DNA of 64,000 nt. Origin: an uncultured Alphaproteobacteria bacterium. GTDB lineage: Bacteria; Pseudomonadota; Alphaproteobacteria; UBA828. The notes below the pieces were generated by a model. The model did no database searches. It was not told the DNA's origin and saw only the letters and a program-made list of their open reading frames with translations. The stretch is from positions 2,785 through 66,784 of the forward strand of contig CAJXFT010000001.1 in the NCBI GenBank assembly GCA_913053235.1, given 5' to 3'. The number at the start of each line of letters is the position of its first letter. Position 1 is the first letter of the stretch. Positions 32,380 through 51,284 of this stretch are shown here, piece after piece. The position numbers were made by a program, and so were the translations under genes.

Positions 32380-32474
32380 CGCCCGCCGCCATCGCCTTGG
32401 CGACGGTCGATCGCGTATAGTGGCGAATATTGTAAACGGGTTGGCGCCAACGCCTGGCGGACCGAGGAGGAAGC
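32380..32474. promoter_or_regulatory. Divergent promoter region between operon A (minus) and the alpha/beta-hydrolase gene (plus)
   Basis: Only non-coding gap at the head of the 19-kb minus operon. Contains the AT-rich core tatagtggcgaatattgtaaac. Confidence 0.4.
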
Positions 32475-35099: not shown

Positions 35100-36134
35100 A
35101 TGAGCGCGGCCATGGCCGGCAACGACAAAAGATTCAGTGGCAAGCGCGTCTTGGTCACCGGCGCCGATGGATTCATCGGCTCGCATCTGGCCGAGGCGCT
35201 GGTGCGGGGCGGCGCCGAGGTGACGGCGCTGGCGCTTTACAATTCCTTCGGCAGCCACGGCTGGCTCGACGAAAGCGCCGACGAGATACGCGCCCAGATG
35301 CGCATCGAGCTCGGCGACGTGCGCGACGGCGCGCAGATGCGCGCCCTCGCCGAAGGCAGCGAAATCGTCTTTCACCTGGCCGCCCTGATCGGCATTCCCT
35401 ATTCCTATGTGGCGGCGCAATCCTGCGTCGATGTCAACATCCACGGCACCCTCAATCTCCTCGAGGCGGCGCGCGCCGGAGCTGTCGGGCGCTTCGTGCA
35501 CACCTCGACGAGCGAGGTCTACGGCTCCGCCCGAACCAAGCCGATCGGCGAGGACCATGCGCTGCACGGCCAATCGCCCTATGCCGCGAGCAAGATCGGC
35601 GCCGACCAGATGGTCGAGGCGTTTGCCCTGTCGCACGGCACGCCCGCCGTCACGCTCCGGCCGTTCAACACCTTCGGGCCGCGCCAGAGCGAGCGCGCCG
35701 TCATCCCCACCGCGATCCGCCAAATGCTCGATCCGGCCTGCGCCGAAATCCGCCTCGGCGATTTGAGCACGACGCGGGATTTCACTTTCGTCGCCGACAC
35801 GGTGCGCGCCTTCCTCGCCCTCGGCGCCGCGCCGGAGGCCGAATTCGGCACCGTCTACAATGCCGGAACCGGCGTCGAGACCGCGATTGGCGACGTGATT
35901 TCGCGGCTCGGCGAGATCACCGGCAACAACAAGCCCACCGTCAGCGACGAAGCGCGTCTGCGCCCCGAGCATTCGGAGGTGCGCGCCCTGGTCGCCGATG
36001 CGGCGCGCCTGACGGCGCTCACGGGCTGGCGCCCGGAGACGGCGCTCGGCGACGGCCTCGGCCAGTGCGTCGAGTGGTGGCGCCAGCGCATCGCCGGCGG
36101 CCGGCAGCGCCGCGATAGCGGCTACGCGCGCTAA
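35100..36134 (+). CDS. NAD-dependent epimerase/dehydratase (extended SDR; UDP-glucuronate decarboxylase / 4,6-dehydratase-like)
   Basis: KRVLVTGADGFIGSHL Rossmann motif and YAASKIGADQM (YxxxK). The antisense ORF 35052..36143 is junk. Confidence 0.8.
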   Translation: MSAAMAGNDKRFSGKRVLVTGADGFIGSHLAEALVRGGAEVTALALYNSFGSHGWLDESADEIRAQMRIELGDVRDGAQMRALAEGSEIVFHLAALIGIPYSYVAAQSCVDVNIHGTLNLLEAARAGAVGRFVHTSTSEVYGSARTKPIGEDHALHGQSPYAASKIGADQMVEAFALSHGTPAVTLRPFNTFGPRQSERAVIPTAIRQMLDPACAEIRLGDLSTTRDFTFVADTVRAFLALGAAPEAEFGTVYNAGTGVETAIGDVISRLGEITGNNKPTVSDEARLRPEHSEVRALVADAARLTALTGWRPETALGDGLGQCVEWWRQRIAGGRQRRDSGYAR

Positions 36135-36139
36135 CCCGC

Positions 36140-37081
36140 TCATTTCCGGCGCTTCCCGGCGGCGCCGCGCGGCGACGCCTGTGTTTCGTCGCTGAGATAG
36201 GCGCTTTCGCCGGCGCCGAGCGAATGCAGATAGCTGCCGTACTCGCTGCCTTTCATCCGCTGCGCCAGGGCGGCGAGTTGTCGGTCGTCGATCAGGCCGC
36301 GGCGAAAGGCGATTTCCTCGGGACAGGAGATCTTGAGCCCTTGGCGCTTTTCCACGGTGGCGACGAAATTGCCGGCCTCGAGCAGCGACTCATGGGTGCC
36401 CATATCGAGCCAGGCGGTGCCGCGGCCAAGCAGCTGGACGCGCAATCCACCCTCTTCGAGATAGGCCTGGTTGACGCTGGTGATCTCCAATTCGCCGCGC
36501 CCCGAGGGTGCTATGCCGCGCACCATGTCGCACACCCGGCCATCGTAATAGTAAAGTCCGGTCACGGCGTAGGACGAGCGCGGCGCCGCCGGCTTTTCCT
36601 CGATGCTCACGACGCTGCCGTCGGCGGCGAACTCGACGACGCCATAGTCTTGCGGCTTGTTGACGTAATAGGCGAACAGGCTGGCGGTGGCGGATTCCAT
36701 GCGCGCGGCCTGGCGCAGCATGCGGCCAAGGCCTTCGCCGTAGAAAATATTGTCGCCCAGAATGAGAGCCACGGGATCGCCAGCGATGAACGCCTCGCCG
36801 ATGACGAAGGCTTCGGCGATGCCGCGCGGCGAAGCTTGCGTCTCGTAGCTGAGCGAGATTCCCCATTTCGCGCCGTCGCCGAGCAAAGTCTCGAACAAAG
36901 GCCGGTCCTCGGGCCGGGTGATGATCAGAATTTCCGCGATATCGGCCAGCATCAGGGTGCTTAAGGGGTAATAGATCATCGGCTTGTCATAGACCGGCAG
37001 CAGCTGCTTGCTGACGCTCAGCGTCGTCGGCGCCAGGCGGGTACCGCTGCCGCCGGCGAGTATGATGCCCTTGCGAATCAT
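36140..37081 (-). CDS. rmlA: Glucose-1-phosphate thymidylyltransferase
   Basis: [46 protein letters not shown] is near-identical in pattern to RmlA. ATG at 37081 overlaps the rmlB stop. Confidence 0.9.
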
Positions 37082-38208
37082 CGGCGTCCGCCGACCTTCG
37101 CGTCCTGGCCGCCATCGGCCCGGCCGCTCAGGCCGAGGCGCTGGCCGCGATAGCTGCCGTCGCGCACCCGTTTGCACCAGCCTTCATTGTCGAGATACCA
37201 GCGCACGGTTTTTTCCAACCCGCTGGCGAAACTCTCGGCCGGGCGCCAATCGAGCTCGGCGGCGATGCTGTCGATCTCTATGGCGTAGCGCCGGTCATGG
37301 CCGGGCCGGTCTTCGACGAAGGCGATGAGATCGCGGTGGCGACTCGCGCCGGCGCCCGGCGCCAGGCGATCGAGGATATCGCAAATCGCTTCGACGACGT
37401 CGATATTCGCCCGCTCGGCGGCGCCGCCGATGCAATAGGTGCGCCCCGGCACGCCGGCGCTCAAGACCCGGCGCAGCGCACGCGCATGATCTTCGACATG
37501 GAGCCAGTCGCGCACCTGGCGGCCGTCGCCATAGATCGGTAGCGGCTTGCCCTCGAGGGCGTTCAGGATAGATAGCGGAATCAGCTTTTCGGGGAACTGG
37601 CAGGGCCCGTAATTGTTGCTGCAATTGGTGGTCAGCACCGGCAGGTCGAAGCTCTGCTGCCAGGCACGGGCGAGATGGTCGGCCGCCGCCTTGCTGGCGG
37701 CATAGGGCGAGTTGGGGCGGTAGGGATGGCCGGCGGCGAAGGGCGGCGCATCCGGCTCAAGCGCGCCGTAAACCTCGTCGGTCGAGACCTGGAGAAAGCG
37801 GAAGCCGCCTTCGCCGAGCGCGCGGCCAGGATCGGAGACATGCCGCGCGCAATATCCGCGCGCGGCCTCAAGAAGAGTGTAGCTACCGAGGATATTGGTT
37901 TCGATGAACGGCGCCGGGCCGTCGATCGAGCGGTCGACATGGGATTCGGCGGCGAGATGCATAATCGCGTCGGGCCGATAATTCTCGAACAGGCGCGCCA
38001 TCGCTTCCGCGTCGCACACATCCGCCTGCTCGAAACGGTAATTGGCGGCAGCCGCCGCATCGCCGAGCGATTCGAGATTTCCGGCATAGGTCAGCTTGTC
38101 GATATTGACCACCAGATGTTCGCTCTCGGCGACCAATTGGCGGACCACGGCCGAGCCGATAAAACCGGCGCCGCCGGTGACCAGTATCGTCCATTGCGCG
38201 GCGTTCAT
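37078..38208 (-). CDS. rmlB: dTDP-glucose 4,6-dehydratase
   Basis: [16 protein letters not shown]...[10 protein letters not shown]...STDEVYG...[11 protein letters not shown] are the RmlB hallmarks. Confidence 0.9.
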
Positions 38209-38825
38209 TGCCCACTCTCCGGCGATCGCTCGACGTGAAGCAGATGCGGCGTCAACACGCGCGCCGGCGGCAGGCTTCGGATGAGATCGTCATAGACCGC
38301 CTGCGGCGCGTCGAGGGCGGTGAGGATGACGGCGTCGGGGCGGTCGAGCGCGCCGATCGAGGCGACGACCGGCAAGCCCAACAGTGTCTCGCCATGGCGC
38401 CCGCCATCGATCACGCCGAGCAGGACGACATCATGTTCGCGCGCCGAGAGAATGGCGATCTCGGCCAGCTCGCCGGCGCCGGCGAGGGCCAGATGGCGCC
38501 AGCCGGCGGCGCTGCATTGCTCGTATATCGAAGTATATTGCACCCGCGAGCGGCGGAAGAAGGTCAGCGAATCGGAAAGAAATTCGGCGGTCAGGCGGGT
38601 TTTTTCGGTAAACCCCTGCGGCGTCAGATAGTAGGCGTAGCGATTGGGCGGAATCTCGCTGATTTTGATCAGCCCCTTGCGCACGCAGCGCTTGACATAA
38701 CTGTTGGTCATGCCGAGCGCGATGCCCAGTTCCTTGGCCAAAGTGCGCTGATTGACATGCTCCGATTCGCCGACGCGGACCAGAATGTCGCGGATGATGG
38801 CGTCGTCGCGCGCTTTGCGGGTCAT
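38205..38825 (-). CDS. Winged helix-turn-helix transcriptional regulator (MarR-like N-terminal domain + uncharacterised C-terminal domain)
   Basis: [31 protein letters not shown] is an HTH. Divergent to the phosphonate operon. Confidence 0.65.
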
Positions 38826-39200
38826 CCGGCGATCCCGCCAAACAAAATGCGCGGCGGCCCCGGGCGATTCCGCATATTGGCAATTAACATGTTGATATAA
38901 TGTAGAATTTTGAGACGCTACCGCCGTTCCGGGTGCAAGGCTGCGGCCCGGTCGGCGGTGAATCGCGAATCCGCGAATCGGGCCTTACGATGCCCCGGCG
39001 GAACCTGATATGTTATATGTTCAAACTTTGAACAGTGTTGCTCCGCCTATCGTTCACGAATTGAACGCCGAATCAAGGGCTTTGTTCATTTTTTGAACGC
39101 GGGGGCATGTTCGGCGCCCGGCGATTCCACGGGCATTTTCTCGCCACTTTCGGCATGCTACGATTCGCAAAATCGGGCCAAAACGGAAAACGGGCGGGTC
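38826..39200. promoter_or_regulatory. Divergent regulatory region with an extended -10 promoter and three GTTCA-N-TGAAC inverted repeats
   Basis: TGATATAAT at ~38893-38901. Palindromes: tgttcaaactttgaaca at 39018-39034, cgttcacgaattgaacg at 39051-39067 and gttcattttttgaac at 39084-39098, with centres ~32-33 bp apart. Confidence 0.5.
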
Positions 39201-40871
39201 ATGGCGACAAAATTGGACGGCGCGCCGGCGAGCCGGGCGCCGCGCTCCAAGGCGGAAATGCTGAAAGCTGCGCTCCTCAAGGCCGAGCTGGCCTTTGTCA
39301 TGGAGGCGCATAACGGTCTTTCGGCGAAAGTCGTCGAGGAGGCCGGGTTCGAGGGCATTTGGGCCTCCGGGCTGGCGATGTCGGCGGCCTTGGGCGTGCG
39401 CGACAACAACGAAGCCTCGTGGACCCAGGTGCTCGAACAGCTCGAATTCATGGCCGACGCCACCAGCATTCCGATTCTGGTCGACGGCGATACCGGCTAC
39501 GGCAATTTCAACAATGTGCGCCGGCTGGTGAAGAAGCTGTGCCAGCGCGGCGTCGCCGGGGTGTGCATCGAGGACAAGCTGTTTCCGAAGACCAATTCCT
39601 TCATCGGCGAGGGCCAGCCGCTCGCCGATATGGAGGAGTTTTCGGGCCGCATCAAGGCCGGCAAGGACAGCCAGGAGGACGAGGATTTCCAGCTCATCGC
39701 CCGCGTCGAAGCGCTGATATCGGGCCTCGGCATGGCTGAGGCTTTGCGCCGCGCCGAGGCCTATCACAGCGCCGGCGCCGACGGAATTTTGATACATTCG
39801 AAGAAGGCCGACGCCGAAGAGATCCTCACCTTCAGCCGCGAATGGGCCGGGCGCGCGCCCCTCGTGATCGTGCCGACGATGTATTACGCCACCCCGACCG
39901 ACGCTTTCCGCGATGCCGGCGTGTCGCTGGTGATCTGGGCCAACCATAACTTACGCGCCGCCTTGAGCGCGATGCGCGAGACCAGCCGGCGCATCATGGA
40001 GGAGCAGTCGCTGACCTCGGTCGAAGGCGAGGTCGCCGGCGTCAAGGAGATCTTCGACATCGTCGGGCAGGGCGAGCTGGCGGCGGCCGAGGCGCGCTAC
40101 CTCAAACCCAAGGGCGGCGATTACAAGGCCATCATACTCGCCGCGTCGCGCGGCTCGGCGCTCGGGCCGCTCACCGAACGGCTGCCCAAATGCATGCTCG
40201 ACATCCGCGGCCAGCCGCTGCTCAAGCGCCTGATGACGACGCTGGCTGAGGGCGGTTTGCGCGACATCAGCGTGGTGCGCGGCTACGCCAAGGAAATGAT
40301 CGATCTCGCCAATCTGCGCGTCATCGACAATGACGCCTTCGCCGACAATAGCGAAGCGGCGTCGCTCGCCTGCGCCGCCGCCGAGCTCGATGGCGCCTGC
40401 GTTGTCTCATACGGCGATATCCTGTTCCGGCCCTATATTCTGGAAAATTTGCTCGCCTCGTCCGGCGATATCAGCGCCGTGATCGACGCCCGCTGGCGCG
40501 GCACCGGCCACCGCGCGGCCGAGCGCAAGGTCGATCTCGCACGCTGCAGCCGCGCCTTCACCGGCGATTATCTCGACGAGGAACCGGTATGGCTGGAGGC
40601 CATCGAATCGGCTGCCGGAGAAGGCGGCGAGAGCGACGCGCCGGACGGCGAATTCATCGGCCTGATCAAATTGAGCGCCGCCGGCGCGCACGCGGTGCGC
40701 CGCGAATTGCAGGCGATGGAGGCCGAGGGGGTGCTCGATGAGGCCGATCTGCCGGCGCTCTTAAACCGGCTGATCGCGCGCGGCGAGAAGATCGAAGCGC
40801 TCTATGTGACCGGGCATTGGCTCGATGTCGATGATGCTTTCGATCTCGCCAAGGCGCGCAATCTCGTGTGA
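39201..40871 (+). CDS. pepM: Phosphoenolpyruvate mutase fused to a C-terminal nucleotidyltransferase (phosphonate cytidylyltransferase-like)
   Basis: [47 protein letters not shown] is the PEP-mutase signature. The C-terminal ~230 aa ([32 protein letters not shown]) form a nucleotidyltransferase fold. Start ATG at 39201. Confidence 0.85.
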
Positions 40872-40878
40872 TACCAAG

Positions 40879-42015
40879 ATGATCGCGGCGGATGATTTTC
40901 TCGCGCCGGCGCGGGCGCTCGGATTTGATTTCTATTCCGGCGTCCCGTGCTCCTTTCTGGCGCCGCTGATCAACCGCGTGATTTCCGACCCCGGGCTTGA
41001 CTATGTCGGCGCCACCAGCGAGGGCGAAGCGCTGGCGATCGCCGCCGGCGCCTGGCTGGCCGGGCGCAAGTCGGTGGTGATGTGCCAGAACTCGGGCCTC
41101 GGCAACACCGTCAACCCGCTGACTTCGCTCAATTACCCGTTCCGCATCCCGACCCTGTTGATCGTCACCTGGCGCGGCCAGCCCGGCCTCGAGGACGAGC
41201 CGCAACATGAATTGATGGGCCAGATCACGGCTGAGCTGCTCGATGTCATGCAGGTGCCGCACGCGCCTTTCCCGAGCGACGAATCGGGCGTCGCGGAGGT
41301 GCTGGAGAAGGCCTACAAAAGCATGGCGATAAGCGGCCTTCCCTTCGCCCTCATCATGGCCAAGGGCGCGGTGGCGGCCGAGACGCTCGACCCACCGCCG
41401 CCGCCGCCGTCGCCGGCCGGCGATTTGCACGACCGCTCAAGCGGCGGAGAGCGCCCGGCCCGCGCCGAGGCGCTGCAAACCCTGCTCGCCGTGACGCCCG
41501 GCGATGCCGCCATCATCGCCACCACCGGAAAGACCGGGCGCGAATTGTTCACCCTGGCGGACCGCCGCCAGCAGCTCTATCAGGTCGGCTCGATGGGCTG
41601 CGCCGGGGCCATGGGATTGGGCGTCGCGCTCAATGTGAAACGCCCGGTCATCGTCATCGACGGCGATGGCGCGGCGCTGATGAAGCTCGGCGCGCTGGCC
41701 ACCATCGGCGCCCATGCGCCGGACAATCTCCTGCATCTGATTCTCGACAATGGCGTGCATGATTCGACCGGCGGCCAGGCCACGGTGTCGCCCGGCGTCT
41801 CGTTCGCCGGCGCGGCGCGGGCGTGCGGCTACCGGTCCAGTCATGTTTGCGATTCGCTGGACGGTTTCGCAGTCGCACTGGAAGAAGGGTTGGCCGGTGC
41901 CAAGCCGTGCCTGATCCATCTGCGCACCGCGCCGGGCTCGCTCAGCCCGTTGGGACGGCCGACGCTGGCGCCTTCCCAGGTGGCGCGGCGTTTTCGCGAC
42001 TTCCTCGCCTCGTAA
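40879..42015 (+). CDS. ppd: Phosphonopyruvate decarboxylase (TPP-dependent)
   Basis: Two-domain TPP enzyme with the Mg/TPP motif GDGAALMKLGALATIG...N. Immediately follows PEP mutase, as in phosphonate pathways. Confidence 0.8.
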   Translation: MIAADDFLAPARALGFDFYSGVPCSFLAPLINRVISDPGLDYVGATSEGEALAIAAGAWLAGRKSVVMCQNSGLGNTVNPLTSLNYPFRIPTLLIVTWRGQPGLEDEPQHELMGQITAELLDVMQVPHAPFPSDESGVAEVLEKAYKSMAISGLPFALIMAKGAVAAETLDPPPPPPSPAGDLHDRSSGGERPARAEALQTLLAVTPGDAAIIATTGKTGRELFTLADRRQQLYQVGSMGCAGAMGLGVALNVKRPVIVIDGDGAALMKLGALATIGAHAPDNLLHLILDNGVHDSTGGQATVSPGVSFAGAARACGYRSSHVCDSLDGFAVALEEGLAGAKPCLIHLRTAPGSLSPLGRPTLAPSQVARRFRDFLAS

Positions 42016-42026
42016 TGTCCGTGCCG

Positions 42027-42524
42027 TCAGATCGGCTCGACATCGCCGCCGGCGACGGAAACGCGCACCTCGCGGCCCATCAGTTTCAGCAGGATCAAAA
42101 CCCGGTCGGAATCGAGCTCGGCCTCGAAGATGCCCTCCAGATCGGCCATCGGCCCGCCCTGGACGCGCACGCTATCGCCGGGTTTGATGGCGCGCCGCGC
42201 GATCTCGAAAACGCCGTCGGCGCCGGCCCGGGCTCTCAGCGCCTCGATGATATCGCCGCCGATGGCGAGCGGGCCGTCGGCCCCCGAAACCATGGTGTGG
42301 ACGCCATAGGTCGAGAGTATGGGCCGCCAGGTCTGGCTCGAGAGGTCGAGCCGGACGAACAGATAGCGCGGGAAAAGCGGCCGCGGAACGCTTTCGACCC
42401 GGCGTGCATGGCGCCGCGTCTTGTGGTACATCGGCAGCCAGACCTCATAGTTCTGACGCACCAAATTGGTCTCGGCCCGTTGCTCCGAGTTGACCCGGCA
42501 ATGGACCACATACCATTGTCTCAT
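42027..42524 (-). CDS. NusG/RfaH-family transcription antiterminator paralog (NGN + KOW)
   Basis: MRQWYVVHCRVNSEQRAETNL NGN domain and a C-terminal KOW-like region. A stand-alone gene inside a polysaccharide island is typical of RfaH/LoaP-like specialised paralogs. Confidence 0.7.
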   Translation of the reverse strand: MRQWYVVHCRVNSEQRAETNLVRQNYEVWLPMYHKTRRHARRVESVPRPLFPRYLFVRLDLSSQTWRPILSTYGVHTMVSGADGPLAIGGDIIEALRARAGADGVFEIARRAIKPGDSVRVQGGPMADLEGIFEAELDSDRVLILLKLMGREVRVSVAGGDVEPI

Positions 42525-42603
42525 TTAACCTCTGAAGCGGTTTCCATTTCCAACGCGCCCTGATCCGAGTAGACTCCGCGCGTCGCGCAATCAAGTAAAA
42601 TTC

Positions 42604-43620
42604 ATGTCTTCGGTACAGTTTTCGGCAAGCTCTAAATATTCCGTGAAGCGGTTCGTCATGATCGCGGCCAAACTTGCCGTCACCGGCGGCTTGGTCTGGT
42701 ACCTGTTGCGCGAGGTCGATTTGGATGAAAGCGGCGAGCATCTGGCCGGCTTCGACGCCGGATTGGGCATCGTCGCACTTCTGGTGGTGGCGTTGCTGTT
42801 CCTCATCGCCGCCCTGCGCTGGCGCATTTACGCGCGGGCGCTGAACATTTCGCTCAATGTCGGCACCGCCTTTCGCCTCTATCTCATCGGCCAGTTCTTC
42901 GGTCAGATTTTGCCCGCCGGCGTCGGCGGCGATGCGGTGCGGGTGTGGCTGTTGGCGCGCCGCGGCGTCGCCGTCGGGCCGGGCGCGTCGAGTGTCGTGC
43001 TCGAACGCCTGACCGGCCTGATCGGCATTGTGATTCTGATAGCCGTCCTGTTGCCGCTGACCTTTAGCTATGTCGGTGATTCGGGGATGCGCCTCTACCT
43101 CGTCCTGATTCTCGCCATCGCCGCCGCCGGGATATCCGCCATCATCGGGCTTTCCTTCGTGCCGCGCCTGATCACCAGGTGGCGCGCGGTGGCGGTGATC
43201 TCCAAACTGGCCGACGTGGCGAGCGAGGCGCGCCACACCGGTTTGATGCTGAAACCGGCGCTCAGCGTTTTGCTGCTGTCCGTCTTCATGCATCTGCTGG
43301 CGGTGCTCACCGTCTATATTCTGGCGCTCGGGCTCGGCATGGAGATTACGCCGCTCGCCTGCCTGGCGCTGGTGCCCGTCGTCCTGCTGCTTTCCACCCT
43401 GCCCATTTCGGTGGCCGGCTGGGGGGTGCGTGAAACCGTGATGGTGTCGGCGCTGGGTTTCGCCGGCGCCGAATCGAGCGAAGCGTTCGCGCTCTCGATC
43501 CTGTTCGGCCTGGCGCTTTTGGCTCTCAGTCTGGTCGGCGCGGTCATGTGGCTGGTTCAGGGGCGCGCCAATGCGCGCCGGCCGATCGGCGACAAAAAAG
43601 GCAGCGAGGCCGCGCTCTGA
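42604..43620 (+). CDS. Integral membrane protein, lysylphosphatidylglycerol-synthase-TM-region / flippase-like (UPF0104)
   Basis: ~8 TM helices and the GDAVRVWLLARRG motif typical of the LPG_synthase_TM family. Start may be M19 (42658). Confidence 0.65.
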   Translation: MSSVQFSASSKYSVKRFVMIAAKLAVTGGLVWYLLREVDLDESGEHLAGFDAGLGIVALLVVALLFLIAALRWRIYARALNISLNVGTAFRLYLIGQFFGQILPAGVGGDAVRVWLLARRGVAVGPGASSVVLERLTGLIGIVILIAVLLPLTFSYVGDSGMRLYLVLILAIAAAGISAIIGLSFVPRLITRWRAVAVISKLADVASEARHTGLMLKPALSVLLLSVFMHLLAVLTVYILALGLGMEITPLACLALVPVVLLLSTLPISVAGWGVRETVMVSALGFAGAESSEAFALSILFGLALLALSLVGAVMWLVQGRANARRPIGDKKGSEAAL

Positions 43621-45116
43621 TGGATTCGGAAGCCAATCCGCTTCGCCTTGTCGCCGAATCGCAGGACGAGAACCGGCGACAACGGCGCGCCGACCTGATT
43701 CGCGAATATTATGACCGCGTCGCGCCGGAGCGTGACAAGTGGATCTCGCGCAACGCCTATTTCCACGATGAGGACAGCCGCTTCGCGCGTTTTCTCGTGC
43801 CGCCCGGCCTCAAAGTTTTGGATCTCGGCTGCGGCACCGGGCAGATGCTGGCGAATCTCAAACCATGTCAAGGCGTCGGCATCGACATCAGCGCCAAAAT
43901 GGTCGACGCGGCACGGCGCAATTACGCGGCGGACCGCCATCCCAACCTCAGCTTCGAGGTCGGTGATATCGAGGAACCCGAGACTCTCGATGCGCTCGAC
44001 GGCCCCTTCGATGTGATCATCCTTTCCGATACCGTCGGCCTCTTGGACGATGTCGAGGCCACCCTGGCCAGCCTGCACAACCTGTCCTCGAACGAGACGC
44101 GCATCGTGGTCGCCTATTATTCCTGGCTGTGGACACCGACGATTGCGCTGGCCGAGCTGTTCGGCGCCAAGATGCCGCAAATCCCACTCAACCGGCTCGG
44201 GCCGGAGGATGTTTCGGCGCTGCTGGAGTTGGCGGATTTCGACGTCATCAAACGGGATTGGCGTCAACTTCTGCCCAAACGCCTGTTCGGCGCCGGCCCG
44301 CTCATCAATCGATCGCTGGCGGTGCTGCCCCTTATCCGCCGCTTCTGCGTTCGCCATTACGTCGTCGCGCGCTCGCGTCGTCATGCCGGGCTCGACAATC
44401 CCTCCACTACGGTCGTCATTCCGTGCCGCAACGAGCGCGGCAACATCGCTCCCGCCGTCGATCGGCTCCCCGAATTTTGCGATGAAATGGAAATTCTCTT
44501 CGTCGAGGGTCACAGCAGCGACGGCACGCGGGAGGAAATCGAGCGCGTCATCGCGCGCCACCCGGAGCGCGATATCAAGCTGCTGCTGCAGGACGGCGAA
44601 GGCAAGGGCAACGCGGTGCGTGCGGCCTTCGACGCCGCGCGCGGCGATATCCTCATGATACTCGACGCCGATTTGACCGTGCCGCCCGAGGCACTGCCCA
44701 AATTCTACAATGCGCTGGTCGGCGGCAAGGGAGAGTTCATCAACGGCACGCGGCTGGTCTATCCGATGGAAAAGCGCGCCATGCGGCCGCTCAATCTGAT
44801 CGCCAATTTCTTCTTCTCGATGGTCTTTTCCTGGCTCCTCAACCAGCGCTTCACCGATACGCTGTGCGGCACCAAGGTGTTGACCAAGGCGCATTATCTC
44901 GACATCGCGAAAAACCGTGCCTATTTCGGAAACTTCGATCCGTTCGGCGATTTCGACCTCATCTTCGGCGCCTCCAAGCTCAACCTGAAAGTGATCGAAA
45001 TCCCCATCCGCTACGCCGAGAGAACCTATGGCAGCACGCAAATTTCGCGCTTCCGCCACGGTGTCCTGTTGCTGCGCATGGTGGTTTTCGCATTTCGCAA
45101 GCTGAAGGCCTTCTGA
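43620..45116 (+). CDS. Bifunctional SAM-dependent methyltransferase / family-2 glycosyltransferase (Dpm1-like)
   Basis: N-terminal VLDLGCGTGQMLANL (methyltransferase motif I). C-terminal VVIPCRNERGNI...ILMILDADLT (GT2, DxD) plus a TM tail. ATG at 43620 in a TGATG overlap with the flippase-like gene. Confidence 0.75.
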   Translation: MDSEANPLRLVAESQDENRRQRRADLIREYYDRVAPERDKWISRNAYFHDEDSRFARFLVPPGLKVLDLGCGTGQMLANLKPCQGVGIDISAKMVDAARRNYAADRHPNLSFEVGDIEEPETLDALDGPFDVIILSDTVGLLDDVEATLASLHNLSSNETRIVVAYYSWLWTPTIALAELFGAKMPQIPLNRLGPEDVSALLELADFDVIKRDWRQLLPKRLFGAGPLINRSLAVLPLIRRFCVRHYVVARSRRHAGLDNPSTTVVIPCRNERGNIAPAVDRLPEFCDEMEILFVEGHSSDGTREEIERVIARHPERDIKLLLQDGEGKGNAVRAAFDAARGDILMILDADLTVPPEALPKFYNALVGGKGEFINGTRLVYPMEKRAMRPLNLIANFFFSMVFSWLLNQRFTDTLCGTKVLTKAHYLDIAKNRAYFGNFDPFGDFDLIFGASKLNLKVIEIPIRYAERTYGSTQISRFRHGVLLLRMVVFAFRKLKAF

Positions 45117-45856
45117 TGCCCGGCGCCGCGCCGGCGGCGGCGCATTTGGACTCATATCGCGCGACATGGCGAAACAAGGCGGCATTGCGCGCCGTCTATG
45201 GCGATTATTACCGGCGCATGGTCAAACAGTTGAATCCCGGACCGACGCTGGAACTCGGCGCCGGCAGCGGGCAGTTGCGTGAGCATCTTAAGGGTGCCGT
45301 GCTGACCGATATTCAGACGGCGCCCTGGCTCGACGCCGCCGCCGACGCCCAGGCGCTGCCGTTCCGCACCGCCTGCTTTGAGAATATCGTTATGCTGGAC
45401 GTTCTTCATCACGTCGAAAACCCGCCGCAATTTTTTGCCGAGGCGGCGCGCGTGCTCAGGCCGGGCGGGCGAATGGTTATGCTGGAGCCGGCGATTACGC
45501 CGCTCAGCGCCCTGTTCTACCGCTATCTCCATCCCGAGCCGGTCGATATGGGGCAGGATCCGTTCGCCAGCCCGGCCGCCAGCCCCGAGCGCGGTCCGTA
45601 CGACGCCAACCAGGCGATTCCGACACTTTTATTCCGCCGCCAGCGGGCGCGCTTCGAACATCACTTTCCCGACTTCCGGCTGCTTCTGGTGCGCAATCTG
45701 AGCCTGTTCGTCTATCCGCTTTCGGGCGGCTACCGCCGTTGGAGCCTGGTGCCCGCCTTCCTCGTCCGCCCCTTGCTCTGCGCCGAGGACGGCCTGCTGG
45801 TCCTGTTGGGGCCGGTCATGGCCTTCCGCCTTTTCGTCCTGCTGGAGCGGCGCTAG
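45116..45856 (+). CDS. Class I SAM-dependent methyltransferase
   Basis: TLELGAGSGQL motif I. ATG at 45116 in a TGATG overlap. Confidence 0.7.
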   Translation: MPGAAPAAAHLDSYRATWRNKAALRAVYGDYYRRMVKQLNPGPTLELGAGSGQLREHLKGAVLTDIQTAPWLDAAADAQALPFRTACFENIVMLDVLHHVENPPQFFAEAARVLRPGGRMVMLEPAITPLSALFYRYLHPEPVDMGQDPFASPAASPERGPYDANQAIPTLLFRRQRARFEHHFPDFRLLLVRNLSLFVYPLSGGYRRWSLVPAFLVRPLLCAEDGLLVLLGPVMAFRLFVLLERR

Positions 45857-45859
45857 GGT

Positions 45860-46705
45860 ATGATGTCGACCAGGCAAAAGATTCGGCTCGCCGGTGCCGC
45901 CGCGCGCCTGGTCAACGGCGTGCGGCGCGGCGTCGGTGCCGGCGATGATGCCGAAGTGCGGCGCGGCGGCCTCAATTGGCGGCTCGAGCTCGGCGAAGGC
46001 ATCGATTTTGCCATATATCTCCTCGGCGCGTTCGAACGCGCGACGCAGCGCCAATATGGACGACTCCTCAAGCCGGGCGACGTGGCGCTTGATATCGGCG
46101 CCAATATCGGTGCCCACACCCTGCCCATCGCGCGCCTCGTCGGCGCCGCCGGGTCGGTGCATGCCTTCGAGCCGACGGCGTTCGCTTTCGCCAAGCTGAA
46201 GGCGAATATCGCTCTCAATGCCGATCTCGCGAAACGCGTGCACGCGCATCAAATGCTGTTGAGCGACAGCGCCGGGGATGCACCGCCGGCCGCGTTGGCG
46301 GCGAGCTGGCCGCTCGGCGAGCGTGCGGGAGGGCATCCGCTGCATGGCGGCCATGAAAAGACGACCGCCGGCGCCGCGGCGGAGACGCTCGATTCATATG
46401 TCGCGCGACAGCGAATCGAGCGCATCGACTTCATCAAACTGGATGTCGACGGAAACGAATGCCACGTCCTGCGCGGCGGACAGGATACGCTGCGGCGCTT
46501 GCAACCGCCCATTATCCTGGAATTGGCCCCCTATATATTTTCCGGCGGCGAGAACAGCTTCGAAGCCTTCATCGGGCTGCTGCGCGACGCCGGCTACAGA
46601 TTGTTGCGGTCGCCGGGCGGTGCCGCGCTTGCGCTCGACGCGGCGGCGCTTGGCGACAGCATTCCGAACGGCGCCAGCATCAACGCCTGGGCGATGCGGG
46701 CATGA
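45860..46705 (+). CDS. FkbM-family methyltransferase
   Basis: VALDIGANIGAHTLPIARL...VHAFEP is typical of FkbM. Confidence 0.7.
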   Translation: MMSTRQKIRLAGAAARLVNGVRRGVGAGDDAEVRRGGLNWRLELGEGIDFAIYLLGAFERATQRQYGRLLKPGDVALDIGANIGAHTLPIARLVGAAGSVHAFEPTAFAFAKLKANIALNADLAKRVHAHQMLLSDSAGDAPPAALAASWPLGERAGGHPLHGGHEKTTAGAAAETLDSYVARQRIERIDFIKLDVDGNECHVLRGGQDTLRRLQPPIILELAPYIFSGGENSFEAFIGLLRDAGYRLLRSPGGAALALDAAALGDSIPNGASINAWAMRA

Positions 46706-48090
46706 CGCCGGCGCGCACGCTATGGCTCGTTTTCGCCGGCGCGCTGGTGATCCGCCTCGCCTATACGCTGGGCCTTTATATCGGCATCGGCGCGGAAGCT
46801 TTTCTCGTCGAGGATTCAATTCCTTATCTGGAACTCGGCAAAATCTTCGCTTCCGAGGGCGATTTATTGCGCGAAACGGATGTCGCCGGGCAGTTTGAGC
46901 CCGAAGTAGAACGCATGCCGCTCTACTTGATTTGGCTGGCCGTGCACCAATTGGTGAGCGGCATGTCGGCGCCGCTTTTTCCGGCCTTGACCCAAGGTGC
47001 CGTGGACGCGTTTTCCTGCGTCCTCATCGCGCGCACGGCGATGCTTGTCGATCCCCGCCTGCTGCTGCCCGCCGGTCTGTTTGCCGCGTGCAATCCAACC
47101 CAGATCATCGTCGGCGCGATGATCCTCACCGATTCGCTGTTTTTCTTTTTCGTCTGCCTCATGCTCTATGGCGCCGTGCAATGGCTGCGCCGGCCGGCCT
47201 GGCGTTGGGCGCTGCTGTTGGGCCTGGCCCTGGGTCTTGGCGTTTCCACCCGCGTCATGTTGCTGCCGGCGGCGGCGGCGCTGGCGGTCCTGCTGCCGCT
47301 GGCATCGATTTGGCTGCGCCGTTTCCGCATTGCCGGCATCGCCCATGTGCTGGTTTTCATCGCCATCTGCGCGGCGCTCCAGGCCCCCATTCTGGCCCGC
47401 AATATCAGCCGCTACGACAGCGTTCAATTTACCAACCAAGGCGGTGCCTATGAGTTGCTGTGGCTGGCGCCGCTGGTATTGGAAGCGGTCGACGGCACGC
47501 CGCACGCCGAAGGGGCGCGGCAAATGTATCAGCGTTACAAACGCGAAATCGGCGGGGTGGAGCCCGACAATCCGTTCGAGCGCTCGGCCTTGATGTCGGT
47601 CACGGCGCGGAACATCATCGCCGAGTTGGGCGTCCTCGCCACCGTCAAGGCGTGGCTGATCGGCGGCGCCATCAATATATTTTCGCCGGCGGCGATCCTG
47701 TCACCGCCGGTGAGCAACCTGGCGCATACCGGTTTCTACGATATGGCGGGCGACACCAAATTGGAAAAACTGTCGACCTTCCTGTTCCGCAACGACAACC
47801 CCGCCTATGCCTGGGTGTTGATCGTCAGCTTTCTCGCCCTTTTGGCGGTGCGCGCCGGGCAATTGTTCGGCCTCGGCCACGGCCTGTTTCGCCGAGCAAG
47901 CCGCGAGACGCGCATCATTCTCATCCTGATGCTGCTCTGGACCCTCTACATTCTGCTCGTCAACGGCCCCATCGCCTCGGCCAAATACCGCCTGCCGATC
48001 GAGCCCTTCAGCGCCATCTGCGCGGCGTTCGCCTATCTGGCGTGGCGCGATTGGATGGGTCGCCGCGCGGCGCGGCGCCGAGCAGGATAG
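46702..48090 (+). CDS. GT-C fold glycosyltransferase (ArnT/PMT, GT39/GT83-like), polytopic membrane protein
   Basis: ~11 TM helices. ATG at 46702 is an ATGA overlap with FkbM. Assigned from topology and family-like loops. Confidence 0.6.
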   Translation: MTPARTLWLVFAGALVIRLAYTLGLYIGIGAEAFLVEDSIPYLELGKIFASEGDLLRETDVAGQFEPEVERMPLYLIWLAVHQLVSGMSAPLFPALTQGAVDAFSCVLIARTAMLVDPRLLLPAGLFAACNPTQIIVGAMILTDSLFFFFVCLMLYGAVQWLRRPAWRWALLLGLALGLGVSTRVMLLPAAAALAVLLPLASIWLRRFRIAGIAHVLVFIAICAALQAPILARNISRYDSVQFTNQGGAYELLWLAPLVLEAVDGTPHAEGARQMYQRYKREIGGVEPDNPFERSALMSVTARNIIAELGVLATVKAWLIGGAINIFSPAAILSPPVSNLAHTGFYDMAGDTKLEKLSTFLFRNDNPAYAWVLIVSFLALLAVRAGQLFGLGHGLFRRASRETRIILILMLLWTLYILLVNGPIASAKYRLPIEPFSAICAAFAYLAWRDWMGRRAARRRAG

Positions 48091-49315
48091 CGCTCAAGAC
48101 AAGAAAGACGCCCTGCCACCACGCCGCCCAAATCGAGAAATTGAGCATCGAGGACGACCAGAAAGCGACGAATATGGCGACGCCGGCGGCCGCCGTCAGG
48201 GGCGATGTGGCGCCGATCCTGAGCCATAGCCGCAACAGCAGCGCCAACGCCGCGAGCAGGGCGGCAAAGCCGAAAGCCCCGGTTTCGAGGAATATTTCGA
48301 GCGGCCAGCTATGCGGATGGGAGGGGATGAATGTCTGGTTGAATTTTTCGAAAAGCACGGAGGCGCCGGGAAGATAATTGCTGACATCGATGCCATGTCC
48401 GAAATAAGGCTTCTCCAGCGCCGCATCGAACGAGAAACTCCAAATATATTGGCGGTGCGCGTCGACCAGCGAGGTCGGCAGGCCGGTCTCTATCGCGCCG
48501 TAATAGACACCATCGCGGATTTGCCCGGCGACCGGCGGCGGCGGCAGGCGGGTCAGCACCCAGGCGGTAGCGATGGCGAGCAGAACGGCGAGCAGGATCA
48601 AAAACAGCGGCGCCGCGCGCCCCCGCCACAGCCGCCAGCGCTGGCAGACATAGACGATAGCGCCGACCACAAATGCGGCGATGAGGCCGAGCAGCCCGGC
48701 CAGGCTGTCGACGGCGAGGATCAGCACCAGGGCGGCGGCCAAATGCACCACGGCGGCATAAAACCAAACCCGGCCGAGGCGGAAGCCGGCCCACAGCACC
48801 GCCGGCGCCAGGCAGGCCAGGGCGGAGCCATAATATTTGAGCAGTTGCGCGGCGTTGACATCGACCCACCCCTTGCCGCGAAAGAGGCCGTATATCGGGC
48901 TTGCCGCATAAAGGCCGAGGAGCGCGATGAGAGCGCAAACCGAGGCGGCGACGATCATGGCGCGCAGACAGGTGTCGAGCCCGCCGCGCGAAAGAAAATA
49001 ATGAATCAGCGCCGCCACACCCACCATGCCGACCATGCGCCCCCAGGCGCCGAGCGAGCGCCCGAGTTCCGGCGAATCGGCGACGCCCGGCAACCATAGG
49101 AGAAAGGTCAGGATGATCGCCAGGCCGAGCGGCGTGCGCGCGCCGCGCAGCACATCGCCGGCCAATTGCCGGCGCCCCGGCGCCGCCAGCATGAGCAGCA
49201 GGGCGAGGGCCAGCGCGGCCAGGGTGACGGCCTTGCCCGACGCCACAAGCGGAACGCCGATTCCAGCGAATATGGCGGCGCCGAGCGCCAGCCAATCCCT
49301 GTTCGCAACCGACAA
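48008..49315 (-). CDS. O-antigen ligase / Wzy_C-family membrane protein
   Basis: Polytopic protein with a Wzy_C-like periplasmic loop. TTG at 49315 has GGAGGAG 10 nt upstream. The ATG at 49513 is a less likely alternative. Confidence 0.6.
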   Translation of the reverse strand: MSVANRDWLALGAAIFAGIGVPLVASGKAVTLAALALALLLMLAAPGRRQLAGDVLRGARTPLGLAIILTFLLWLPGVADSPELGRSLGAWGRMVGMVGVAALIHYFLSRGGLDTCLRAMIVAASVCALIALLGLYAASPIYGLFRGKGWVDVNAAQLLKYYGSALACLAPAVLWAGFRLGRVWFYAAVVHLAAALVLILAVDSLAGLLGLIAAFVVGAIVYVCQRWRLWRGRAAPLFLILLAVLLAIATAWVLTRLPPPPVAGQIRDGVYYGAIETGLPTSLVDAHRQYIWSFSFDAALEKPYFGHGIDVSNYLPGASVLFEKFNQTFIPSHPHSWPLEIFLETGAFGFAALLAALALLLRLWLRIGATSPLTAAAGVAIFVAFWSSSMLNFSIWAAWWQGVFLVLSAILLGAAPRGDPSNRATPDRRTPRRWR

Positions 49316-49511
49316 AAGCCCGGCTCCTCCGTGGCAAGGTTGGTAAGATATTGTGATGTAACACCGCAATCGGGAAGCGGCAAACGGCTGCTTTGGCGTT
49401 TGCGCCGGCGCGCGCGCCGGCGCGCCGGCGGGGCCGTGGATTGACGCGCGGCGCAAGCGGGCGGTAGGTTCGCGGCGCAGCCCTTGCCAGCCCATCGAGC
49501 CCATAAAGAAC

Positions 49512-51284
49512 ATGATAATTCTCGGTGTCCACCCCGGATATCACGAGGCCGCCGCTTGCCTGTTCGACGATTATCGAATGATCTCCGCGGTCTCGCTCGA
49601 GCGCCTGACCCGGCGCAAGATCGATGGCGGGCGGGTGCCCGACGAGGCCATCGACGAATGCCTCGCCATCGCCGGTCTCAGGCGCCGCGAGGTCGATGCG
49701 GTGGTGCTCGGCCGCGGCGCCTTCGCGTGGCGCTATTACCGGCATTTTCGCGGCTCGCGCCTGCTCGAGGGCAAGGTCCGCCAGGCGCTCGGCAAGGAAA
49801 AGCACAAGAGCATGGAGCGCGAGCTGCTGCGCGCCGGCCATGCCGATTCGGCGTCGCTGTTCAACGGCGGCAAATTTCTCGGCGATTTCGGCTTCCGCTC
49901 AACGACCCGGCTCACCTTCTTCAACCACCATCTCGCCCATGCCCTGCCGACGCTCTTTCATACCGATTGGCGGGACGCGCTGCTCTATACCTCGGATGGC
50001 GGCGGCGACAATGTGCAATACAGCCATCGCGTTTTCCGGGACGGCGAGCTGCGTACCCTGTTCGGCGGCGACGAGTGTTTCGCCACGCCGGCGCGAATCG
50101 ACAGCCTGGGTCTCGCCTATGGCTACGCCACCCAGGCGCTCGGCTGGCGCATCAACCGCCATGAAGGCAAGCTCACCGGCCTGGCGGCGCTTGGCCAGCC
50201 CTCGGCGGCGGCGGCCATCGCGGCGCATTTCAGCGTCGATGCCGAGGGCCAGATCCTGAGCGACTTCGCCAGCAATCCCGAGCTCCGCCAGTTCATGTTC
50301 GAAACCGCGAAGGATATCCCGCGCGAGGACATGGCGGCCTCGATTCAAGAGGTGCTGGAACAGGTGACGCTCGAATCCGTGCGCCGCCTCCTTGAGCGCC
50401 ACGGCGTGCGCCGCCTCGGCCTTTCCGGCGGCGTGTTCGGCAATGTCCGCCTCAATCGCCTGTTGGCCGAGGAGACCGATATCGACGAGGTCTTCGTCTA
50501 CCCGGCGATGAGCGACCAGGGCCTGCCGGCCGGCGGGGTGCTGCAATATCTCCTGGAGCGCGACGGCATGAAAACATGGCTCGACGCGCGCACTCCGCTG
50601 GAGACGCTTTATTTCGGCCGCGACTGGGGACGCGACGCCGATAAGGTTTTCGCCGCCACGCCCGGCCTTGGCGTCGTATCGGACAACCCGGTCGACAAGG
50701 CGGCGGCGCTGATCGAGCAGGGCAAGGCGGTGGCGATATTCAGCCACGGCATGGAATACGGCCCGCGCGCGCTGGGAGCGCGCAGCATCCTCGCCTCGCC
50801 CGCCGATGCCGGCATCAACGATGCGCTCAACCGGCGGCTCTCGCGCTCCGAATTCATGCCCTTCGCGCCGGTCGTCGCCGAGGGTGACGCCGAGACGCTG
50901 TTCGATATCGGCGCGCGCAACCGCTATACGGCGCGCTTCATGACCATCACCTGCGACGTCAAGCCAGCCTGGCGGTCGCGCATCCCGGCCGTCGTGCATG
51001 TCGACGGCACGGCGCGGCCGCAAGTAATTCGCCGCGCCGACAATCCGCTCTATTACGATATTCTCGCCGCTTTCAAGCAACTGAGCGGCCTGCCGACGAT
51101 GATCAACACCAGTTTCAACGTGCATGAGGAGCCGATCATCAACAGCCCCGAGGAGTGCGCGCGCGCACTGCGCGACGACCGGGTGGATTACGTCGTCACG
51201 GAGGACGCGGTTTATGGAGCCACGGAGGACGCGGTTTATGGAGCCACCGAGAAAGCGGTTTACGAACGCGAGAGCGGCGCATGA
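49512..51284 (+). CDS. Carbamoyltransferase (NodU/CmcH family)
   Basis: MIILGVHPGYHEAAACLFDD...SLERLTRRK N-terminus and a C-terminal CmcH domain. Carries a tandem 24-nt repeat at its 3' end. Confidence 0.85.
   Translation: MIILGVHPGYHEAAACLFDDYRMISAVSLERLTRRKIDGGRVPDEAIDECLAIAGLRRREVDAVVLGRGAFAWRYYRHFRGSRLLEGKVRQALGKEKHKSMERELLRAGHADSASLFNGGKFLGDFGFRSTTRLTFFNHHLAHALPTLFHTDWRDALLYTSDGGGDNVQYSHRVFRDGELRTLFGGDECFATPARIDSLGLAYGYATQALGWRINRHEGKLTGLAALGQPSAAAAIAAHFSVDAEGQILSDFASNPELRQFMFETAKDIPREDMAASIQEVLEQVTLESVRRLLERHGVRRLGLSGGVFGNVRLNRLLAEETDIDEVFVYPAMSDQGLPAGGVLQYLLERDGMKTWLDARTPLETLYFGRDWGRDADKVFAATPGLGVVSDNPVDKAAALIEQGKAVAIFSHGMEYGPRALGARSILASPADAGINDALNRRLSRSEFMPFAPVVAEGDAETLFDIGARNRYTARFMTITCDVKPAWRSRIPAVVHVDGTARPQVIRRADNPLYYDILAAFKQLSGLPTMINTSFNVHEEPIINSPEECARALRDDRVDYVVTEDAVYGATEDAVYGATEKAVYERESGA
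51199..51270 (+). repeat. Tandem 24-nt repeat (acggaggacgcggtttatggagcc x2 plus a degenerate third copy) encoding TEDAVYGA-TEDAVYGA-TEKAVYER
   Basis: Read directly at the 3' end of the carbamoyltransferase CDS. Confidence 0.8.

Follow-up and report, generated by a model that had tools for sequence, protein, structure and literature searches.

The way in which specialised NusG paralogs are recruited to their targets has been elucidated in two cases only, first E. coli RfaH and more recently UpxY of Bacteroides. E. coli RfaH is a protein of about 160 aa composed of an NGN and a KOW domain and encoded by a monocistronic gene. Its recruitment element, ops (GGCGGTAGCGTG), is found in the leaders of surface-polysaccharide operons and forms a small hairpin in the non-template strand (PMC5995543). 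RfaH reads bases G5 and T6 of ops via residues K10, H20, R23 and R73, and the pocket that receives T6 is made of H20, R23, Q24 and R73 (PMC5995543). Furthermore, RfaH recruitment requires bases G4, G5, A7 and G8, and the substitution G12C abolishes the pause at U11 while recruitment is retained (PMC5995543). In Bacteroides, UpxY recruitment was demonstrated to involve non-template DNA, the upstream duplex and a nascent-RNA pause hairpin, a signal that Saba et al. 2024 explicitly contrast with the hairpin-less ops of RfaH (PMC11685472).

According to the parts of Wang et al. 2020 that bear on the subject (PMC7593976), 18% of rfaH genes are alphaproteobacterial, several RfaH sequence clusters are enriched for cell-envelope neighbours, cluster CL4 comes with an HTH regulator, R73 is placed late in RfaH evolution, and recruitment was known only for E. 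coli RfaH. RfaH homologs have thus far been annotated in Alphaproteobacteria, and their location near envelope genes is already known. The passages of the same paper that deal with these clusters mention no ops elements, hairpin or operator boxes (PMC7593976).

We analysed a 64-kb stretch of DNA from an uncultured alphaproteobacterium, hereafter the window. An ATG-to-stop ORF at 42027-42524 (minus strand) encodes a 165-aa protein with an NGN domain and a C-terminal KOW-type domain. GAGG is found 6 nt 5' of the ATG, and the GC content by codon position (0.69/0.45/0.83) includes a GC3 typical of genes in the window, which is 64% GC. The Pfam NusG NGN domain (PF02357) covers residues 3-96 with an E value of 3.3e-23. 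Among NCBIfam models, the RfaH model TIGR01955 scored highest, with 131.6 bits over residues 4-162 (positions 1-158 of the 159 in the model). This score remained below the RfaH equivalog cutoff (131.6 vs 144.5 bits), as did that of the second RfaH model, NF006534 (95.2 vs 124), and the protein also fell short of the cutoffs for UpxY (NF033644, 81 vs 100 bits) and LoaP (NF033641, 57.3 vs 125 bits). E. coli RfaH chains are its best relatives among solved structures, with an alignment over residues 1-159 that is gapless over 1-103, and the layout of about 160 aa with an NGN and a single C-terminal KOW-type domain is the same. Public sources label members of its cluster RfaH. Seventeen public contigs of marine-type alphaproteobacterial MAGs encode the identical protein, the closest relatives (79-84% identity) occur in Rhodospirillaceae-type MAGs, and relatives in Bradyrhizobium, Afipia, Methylocystis and Xanthobacteraceae share 45-50% identity.

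Structure prediction with AF2 (pLDDT 87) returned an NGN fold followed by a five-strand C-terminal domain. The latter was modelled as a beta-barrel only, not as the autoinhibitory alpha-hairpin, in a prediction made from a 33-sequence alignment that cannot settle fold switching. The Leu-rich segment VLILLKLMGR resembles SMLLLNLINK of RfaH, but the residue corresponding to E48 is an arginine, and therefore the E48-R138 salt bridge is not kept. On sequence grounds, we conclude that 42027-42524 encodes a specialised, stand-alone RfaH-family NusG paralog that lies just under the equivalog cutoff. It is ordinary as a gene call and an ordinary member of its family, and it fits the description of the alphaproteobacterial RfaH clusters given in the passages of Wang et al. 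2020 devoted to them (PMC7593976).

The surroundings of the gene were mapped by combining our own profile scans with the gene calls and Pfam annotation of identical contigs. The rfaH-like gene is monocistronic, as it is convergent with the phosphonopyruvate decarboxylase gene ppd (40825-42015, plus strand) and divergent from a flippase-like/GT2 operon that starts at 42604 (plus strand). The ppd gene follows a PEP mutase-nucleotidyltransferase fusion, the pair occupying 39201-42015 (plus strand). On the other side, 42604-48090 (plus strand) carries the flippase-like gene, a methyltransferase-GT2 gene, two methyltransferase genes and a PMT-like gene, followed by wzy on the opposite strand (48008-49315, minus), then by carbamoyltransferase, GT4 and PglF-like dehydratase genes (49512-54233, plus strand) and purH. 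Beyond the phosphonate genes, a unit on the minus strand (38825 to 36140) comprises a gene for a 206-aa winged-helix protein, rmlB (37078-38208; TIGR01181, 449.5 bits, above cutoff) and rmlA (36140-37081; TIGR01207, 449.4 bits, above cutoff). It is followed by an epimerase gene (35100-36134, plus strand), methyltransferase and DUF924 genes (35052 to 33635, minus strand) and a BD-FAE gene (32475-33617, plus strand). Finally, an 18.6-kb operon of nonulosonic-acid/capsule type runs from 32370 to 13732 on the minus strand. By gene calls and Pfam matches, this operon encodes a CBS-NTP transferase, DegT, a hexapeptide transferase, NeuB, UDP-GlcNAc 2-epimerase, Capsule_synth, an N-acetyltransferase, HisF/HisH-like proteins, a 475-aa protein of unknown function, a CMP-sugar transferase, an ABC exporter, a CBS-epimerase, a further DegT and a PK-barrel/ATP-sulfurylase fusion. 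A scan for sigma-70 consensus promoters between 32 and 50 kb found none, and terminator-like sites occurred at chance level.

The preliminary description of this DNA had proposed a stand-alone NusG/RfaH-like paralog, and the ORF, the PF02357 domain, the full-length TIGR01955 match, the monocistronic arrangement and the surface-polysaccharide setting all bear this out. Its picture of the surroundings was roughly right: the array given as 19 kb measures about 18.6 kb, but the supposed 12-kb polycistron is made of two units, broken by the opposite-strand wzy gene (48008-49315) and equipped with an internal promoter.

A scan for GGCGGTAGnnTG located the sequence GGCGGTAGCGTC at 38914-38925 (minus strand), in the 375-bp intergenic region that precedes the winged-helix gene and 88 nt before the start of that gene. 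Numbered as in E. coli, G1 is at 38925, T6 at 38920, T11 at 38915 and C12 at 38914. The sequence is identical to E. coli ops at 11 of 12 positions and lies in sense orientation, which places it on the non-template strand, as expected for ops in the leader of a target operon. The core G2-G8 is the same as in E. coli, the single mismatch being C for G at position 12. This ops lies 3.1 kb downstream of the rfaH-like gene and on the same strand. Stop and start codons overlap throughout the winged-helix gene, rmlB and rmlA, which are cotranscribed 3' of ops. Taken alone, GGCGGTAGCGTC is weak evidence because the window contains 8 exact copies of the octamer GGCGGTAG, compared to about 4.5 expected; comparison across loci makes the case strong.

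For this comparison we used 80 loci from different species, each encoding a relative of the rfaH-like protein; the genome collection contains at least 597 candidate stretches that encode one. Allowing up to one mismatch, the ops 12-mer occurred 44 times in the 80 loci, 39 times on the rfaH strand and 31 times downstream of rfaH. In 63 of the 80 loci, the rfaH strand carries a composite of the form CACC-N3-8-[G/T]GCGGTAG 3' of rfaH, and several of the remaining loci are truncated. The ops core in these 63 loci reads [G/T]GCGGTAGCnTG, its seven bases GCGGTAG being invariant and the same as the E. coli ops core. An alignment of leaders likewise showed ops to be invariant in five relatives. The overall count of GGCGGTAG is not enriched in the loci (69 observed vs about 92 expected); only the extended and positioned element is significant.

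In distant relatives, the element begins 40-200 nt past the rfaH stop codon. In the clade of the window, which includes L009-L012 and many metagenome contigs, it is found about 3.1 kb downstream, with the opposite-strand ppm-ppd genes between rfaH and ops. A metagenome scan with a 22-mer typical of this clade returned 36 copies on 34 contigs, most of them in the gene context of the window. Some copies lie ahead of an ABC-transporter/NulO-type operon or of a Capsule_synth gene, and two contigs carry two copies each, 4.7 kb apart, without rfaH on the contig. These observations suggest that the element marks several polysaccharide operons and, given the copies on contigs without rfaH, that the factor can act in trans.

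Directly 5' of ops, the window contains a predicted hairpin (CCGGG-cc-GCA-gcct-TGC-a-CCCGG, 38929-38951, minus strand) with a 3' arm that holds CACCC (38931-38935, minus strand) and a stem that ends 14 nt before T11. Alignment of 27 elements revealed an invariant CACCC followed by 4-5 nt and the ops core. When the upstream 34-43 nt were folded with RNAfold, 25 of these 27 elements were predicted to form a hairpin that places CACCC in its 3' arm. The stem ends 0-5 nt before ops across elements and the loop varies between 4 and 14 nt, a variability that argues for a folded single strand and not for a dimeric protein site. A covariance model (R1) built from 12 elements was used to search 1.5 Mb, comprising the window and the loci. 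Each locus gave one significant match, in every case on the strand of rfaH, and the sole match in the window was 38912-38951 (minus strand; 23.6 bits, E about 7e-4). In a 59-sequence alignment, which was itself fitted to model R1, 81.7% of cells were paired compared to 73.2% after shuffling, and the covariation score was 0.222 compared to 0.104; none of 500 shuffles reached the observed value in either case. Controls with a slid register paired 30-55% of cells. Furthermore, two inner pairs vary on both sides (AU/GU/GC and CG/AU). Covariation thus supports the predicted hairpin stem. Rfam, including its JUMPstart family, gave no match at gathering score in the window and nothing within 38700-39250 at E values up to 10.

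The first gene after ops (38205-38825, minus strand) encodes a MarR_EPS-like regulator of 206 aa, hereafter HTH206, with a winged helix and a Rossmann-like domain. Its N-terminus matched Pfam HTH_24 (2.5e-7). The MarR_EPS model TIGR04176 scored 60.8 bits, below its cutoff of 88, and matched the winged helix (residues 13-86) alone. The AF2 model (pLDDT 87) comprises a winged helix, a long helix and an extra Rossmann-like domain of 120 aa. A sequence search of solved structures found no match to HTH206, and Foldseek returned weak, architecture-level matches only (all E > 1e-3, 14-17% identity). Whole-chain matches with the same domain layout included Rex-family repressors (3wg9, 3keq, 5zz6) and winged-helix/Rossmann O-methyltransferases, and the C-terminal domain superposed on the CoA-binding domain of succinyl-CoA synthetase alpha at about 2 A rmsd. 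Like HTH206, Rex-family repressors measure about 200 aa and have a winged helix at the N-terminus, then a long helix, and a domain of Rossmann/CoA-binding type at the C-terminus, but the glycine motif is degenerate in HTH206. In 49 of the 80 loci, the gene immediately 5' of rfaH, in the same orientation, encodes a homologue of HTH206; other loci have this gene directly downstream of rfaH (3), after ops (10) or elsewhere in the locus (5).

Upstream of the hairpin-ops element, we identified three palindromic boxes GTTCA-N5-TGAAC (39019-39033, 39052-39066 and 39084-39098), spaced by 32-33 bp. They are the only such boxes in the window, even when one mismatch is allowed, and they are conserved in relatives. 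A -35-like hexamer, TTGATT (39070-39075, minus strand), precedes the middle box. The 1.6 Mb of loci contain 133 exact boxes compared to about 0.8 expected from composition, usually paired 27-28 bp apart and placed 60-110 nt before the regulator gene. On the metagenome contigs, boxes stand at fixed distances upstream of 35 of the 36 hairpin-ops copies. In the examples inspected, 3-5 nt separate the box from a preceding TTGAYN hexamer, and the box therefore would occupy the promoter spacer and the -10 region. This co-occurrence leads us to propose that the boxes are operators and that HTH206 probably binds them. Altogether, most of the 80 alphaproteobacterial loci compared retain the predicted module of regulator, operators and ops.

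Which genes are placed under ops was examined from the genes that follow it. They are polysaccharide genes everywhere; in other genomes, they include Polysacc_synt_2 dehydratases, UDP-glucose dehydrogenase, a sulfotransferase, CMP-sugar transferases and ABC-2 transporters. In the window, only three genes separate ops from the next gene on the opposite strand, and the direct target of ops would be the regulator-rmlB-rmlA unit. Homologues of the 18.6-kb operon directly follow ops in seven loci (L016, L017, L020, L023, L037, L054 and L073), with much the same order, DegT-hexapeptide-NeuB-epimerase, after ops in L054 and L017. Because ops directly precedes its homologues in these relatives, the 18.6-kb operon is a plausible distal or ancestral target: gene order makes it the likely ancestral one, and it is a possible distal one that would be reached by read-through. 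Among relatives with long flanks, L010 is the closest; there, ops is followed by HTH206, rmlB, rmlA and the opposite-strand epimerase gene, then by methyltransferase, DUF924, CBS-NTP transferase and DegT genes with no BD-FAE gene. Therefore, the apparent leader at 32380-32474 of the window, next to BD-FAE, reflects an insertion. Furthermore, in L009, L011 and L119, the regulator gene alone separates ops from the opposite-strand epimerase gene, a layout which hints that a modified polymerase may run on.

Alignment of the NGN domain with RfaH gave a mixed answer for the residues that read ops. At the contacting positions K10, H20, R23 and R73, the rfaH-like protein has R10 (a conservative change), N20, R23 and Y73. 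R23 and the pocket residue Q24 thus match E. coli RfaH, and H20N and R73Y alter two of the four contacting side chains. N20 and Y/F73 are conserved across its clade, with R73 in a few members. The clade also has an invariant W66-R67 where E. coli RfaH has T66-T67, and an invariant basic RRHARR tip on the NGN beta-hairpin. The ops core is kept despite replacement of H20 and R73. Under the module hypothesis proposed below, ops reading would then either predate those residues or be achieved differently, for instance by stacking of Y/F73 on the flipped T6 and by contact of the RRHARR hairpin with the upstream duplex at CACCC.

Our preferred explanation, which we consider likely, is that an RfaH-family factor loads at the ops at 38914-38925 by means of an extended hairpin-ops signal, downstream of an operator-bearing promoter and with the regulator-rmlB-rmlA unit as direct target. 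From the observed family assignment, element, conservation, linkage to rfaH and hairpin covariation, we infer each of the mechanistic steps that follow. The promoter that feeds ops would carry the GTTCA-N5-TGAAC operators, probably bound by the winged-helix/Rossmann regulator. By analogy with E. coli, the factor would load onto RNA polymerase paused at ops, its NGN domain reading G5 and T6 in a small hairpin of the non-template strand. With its end 11-16 nt upstream of the pause position, the nascent-RNA hairpin would probably make the pause more stable and could offset the weak pause expected from C12 in this clade. The invariant CACCC, as upstream duplex DNA, may be contacted by the basic RRHARR beta-hairpin. 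If the E. coli mechanism applies, the factor would then stay on the polymerase, exclude NusG and Rho and suppress pausing, and its KOW domain may couple a ribosome. With operators at the promoter and ops at elongation, expression would therefore be gated twice.

Several observations do not sit easily with this explanation. For the protein, they are the RfaH score of 131.6 bits below 144.5, the H20N and R73Y replacements along with R at position 10, and the C-terminal domain that AF2 models as a beta-barrel. For the DNA, they are C12, the base that abolishes the U11 pause in E. coli (PMC5995543), the lack of any promoter or transcription start for ops from the sigma-70 consensus scan, the presence of three genes only after ops, and the two long arrays, which have no ops of their own.

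A different function for the hairpin-ops element, independent of RfaH, seems unlikely to us. The element could be the 3' end or an attenuator of the rfaH transcript, or else the regulator could control it as a site of pausing or Rho entry, with the RfaH-like protein acting elsewhere. Such a function would account for the location of the element in most relatives, 40-200 nt past the stop codon of rfaH, which is where a 3'-end structure would be expected, and for hairpin arms that are conserved in sequence and not in pairing alone. However, no T-run follows the hairpin, and elements of unchanged form occur in the promoter-proximal leaders of other operons, both within the clade of the window and on metagenome contigs that lack rfaH. 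Furthermore, the invariant GCGGTAG corresponds to the E. coli ops core, in which G4, G5, A7 and G8 are essential for recruitment (PMC5995543).

The preliminary description had taken the 19-kb and 12-kb arrays as the substrates of the factor and, having found no ops in the leader at 32380-32474, had suggested a novel recruitment site. Our scan agrees on this leader, to which the earlier search was confined, and neither it nor the leader of the 12-kb array (42525-42603) contains ops, hairpin-ops or an operator box. These ops-less leaders, together with replacement of the ops-reading residues H20 and R73, are what one would expect if the factor licensed read-through of the two arrays via a non-ops site. 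We nevertheless regard this as improbable, and somewhat more so than an RfaH-independent element. A near-canonical ops at 38914-38925 (minus strand) is tightly linked to rfaH, being found beside it in 63 of 80 loci, and the covariance model and box search found no other conserved leader element in the window. Moreover, the 32380-32474 leader exists solely through the BD-FAE insertion relative to L010. As for the arrays being direct substrates, both leaders lack ops, and synteny makes the 18.6-kb operon a plausible target. Finally, it is scarcely conceivable that the gene is the housekeeping nusG, a case that the preliminary description had kept in view, or a decaying duplicate, for although the NGN domain and overall two-domain layout are shared with NusG, the protein scores 54.5 bits with the NusG model TIGR00922 against a cutoff of 135.7, has polysaccharide and phosphonate genes and not secE/rplK as neighbours, and is encoded in an intact frame with a coding-type GC3 of 0.83 and 334 homologues, with many invariant residues in the aligned subset.

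Loading of an RfaH-family factor at an extended ops thus being the reading that we retain, we compared the locus with the two described systems. With E. coli RfaH, it shares the protein size, the NGN and KOW domains, R23, Q24, the PLFPxYLF core and a monocistronic gene, and with E. coli ops, it shares GGCGGTAGCGT (11 of 12 positions) and a position in the leader of a surface-polysaccharide operon. It differs from E. coli RfaH by N instead of H20, Y/F instead of R73, W66-R67 instead of T66-T67 and the extra RRHARR tip. Furthermore, E. coli ops is a hairpin-less type-2 pause (PMC11685472), whereas ops in the window clade is preceded by a conserved hairpin, and unlike in E. coli, most relatives studied here have rfaH beside its ops and paired with a DNA-binding regulator. 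As with UpxY and its opsX site, a NusG paralog of polysaccharide operons appears to use a multipartite signal, which in our case is predicted from sequence, and the factor is encoded within or beside the operon that it targets, together with a second regulator gene (PMC11685472). In contrast to UpxY, the core of the signal is the ops of RfaH instead of opsX, the factor is accompanied by a winged-helix/Rossmann protein that would have an operator of its own rather than by an anti-factor of UpxZ type, and there is one factor per locus where Bacteroides has at least eight UpxY-UpxZ pairs, one per capsule operon (PMC11685472). On balance, the extended ops described here resembles the opsX sites of Bacteroides UpxY more than it does E. 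coli ops.

In the literature searched, the coverage of which is incomplete, we found no description of the hairpin-ops composite, of the operator boxes or of ops conservation in these clades. We tentatively propose, as a possibility that falls a little short of even, that many Alphaproteobacteria use a fixed four-part module, made of an operator promoter, a Rex-like regulator, an RfaH paralog and an extended ops, to control surface-polysaccharide operons. If so, the regulator may sense a ligand of nucleotide type, and the clade would be a natural intermediate between the recruitment modes of RfaH and UpxY. We regard the conserved module of extended ops, regulator and operator as moderately interesting. 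What is new is a testable picture of how a non-enterobacterial RfaH would find its targets, with an ops core, a pause hairpin, an upstream sequence, and a linked regulator and its operator. As the clade keeps ops but changes two of the four reading side chains, it allows a direct test of how ops recognition evolved. The result also points to the predicted control point of a locus of about 40 kb for a surface glycan that would contain phosphonate, rhamnose and nonulosonic acid.

Two further ops-like sites in the window were considered and rejected. The sequence GGCGGTAGCGAT, which follows a CACCC at 48563-48574 (plus strand), is antisense within wzy and is not conserved in L007, L009 and L010, as expected of a chance occurrence. 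The other, GGCGGTAGGTTC at 49460-49471 (plus strand), lies 41 nt before the carbamoyltransferase gene and corresponds to a promoter -10 region. Alignment of six relatives at this site showed conservation of TTGACG (49441-49446), of a 17-18-nt spacer and of TAGGTT/TAGGGT (49465-49470), and the GGCGG part of the site is lost in L011, L019 and L024. The conserved TTGACG-N17/18-TAGGTT upstream of the carbamoyltransferase gene is thus, by its sequence, a sigma-70-type promoter.

We identified two metagenome contigs, L093 and L106, that each carry a pair of copies of hairpin-ops, the near-canonical RfaH recruitment element (ops) joined to its conserved hairpin, on one strand (L093, 890-911 and 5569-5590; L106, 226-247 and 4905-4926). 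The paired copies have identical cores, lie 4.68 kb apart and each have their own operator box, and both contigs are without rfaH. The presence of two hairpin-ops copies on contigs devoid of rfaH provides evidence for an RfaH-like factor acting in trans, which would serve several operons.

Furthermore, in L093 and L106 the two hairpin-ops copies flank homologs of the gene that ends the long operon, the 18.6-kb nonulosonic-acid/capsule-type array. In the window, this gene encodes a pyruvate-kinase barrel domain fused to PUA and ATP sulfurylase (13732-15897, minus strand) and adjoins a sulfatase-family gene on the opposite strand (12099-13694, plus strand). Together, the ATP-sulfurylase fusion, its sulfatase-family neighbor and the L093/L106 context suggest that the glycan is sulfated.

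Three GTTCA-N5-TGAAC palindromes spaced by 32-33 bp (39019-39098) separate the divergent ppm gene from the ops unit, which comprises the 206-aa regulator gene, rmlB and rmlA. In related genomes, this box is in massive excess beside rfaH and its partner regulator (133 observed versus approximately 0.8 expected), with TTGAYN located 3-5 nt upstream of the box, a promoter-like setting. The partner, rfaH's conserved neighbor, is a winged-helix and Rossmann-like protein of 206 aa (38205-38825, minus strand) whose family has at least 1835 members and whose gene lies directly upstream of rfaH in 49 of the 80 loci. This predicted regulator resembles Rex in architecture and MarR_EPS in its N-terminus. 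Just 3' of ops, the conserved stretch ttATATCAAcATgTTAaT (38880-38905, minus strand) is kept in the four closest relatives; it may belong to the leader RNA or form an additional protein site.

Between rfaH and ops lies a phosphonate-decoration pair, a PEP mutase-NTP_transf_3 nucleotidyltransferase fusion followed by a phosphonopyruvate decarboxylase (39201-42015, plus strand; ORFs overlapping by 47 nt), an insertion limited to the window's clade. A second insertion is the esterase-like BD-FAE gene (32475-33617, plus strand). L010, a close relative, lacks BD-FAE at the matching position and DUF924 directly abuts the CBS-NTP transferase gene. Therefore, the 95-bp segment that the preliminary description regarded as the operon A leader is a by-product of BD-FAE insertion.

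A conserved sigma-70-like promoter, TTGACG-N18-TAGGTT (49441-49470, plus strand), precedes the carbamoyltransferase-GT4-PglF-like unit. The octamer GGCGGTAG overlaps its -10 region and was rejected as an ops site, its resemblance to ops being due to chance. Finally, 10 GCGGTAG heptamers are found inside genes between 13700 and 63600, a small sample with nine antisense and one sense; this antisense bias could result from the in-frame TAG or from avoidance of intragenic ops.
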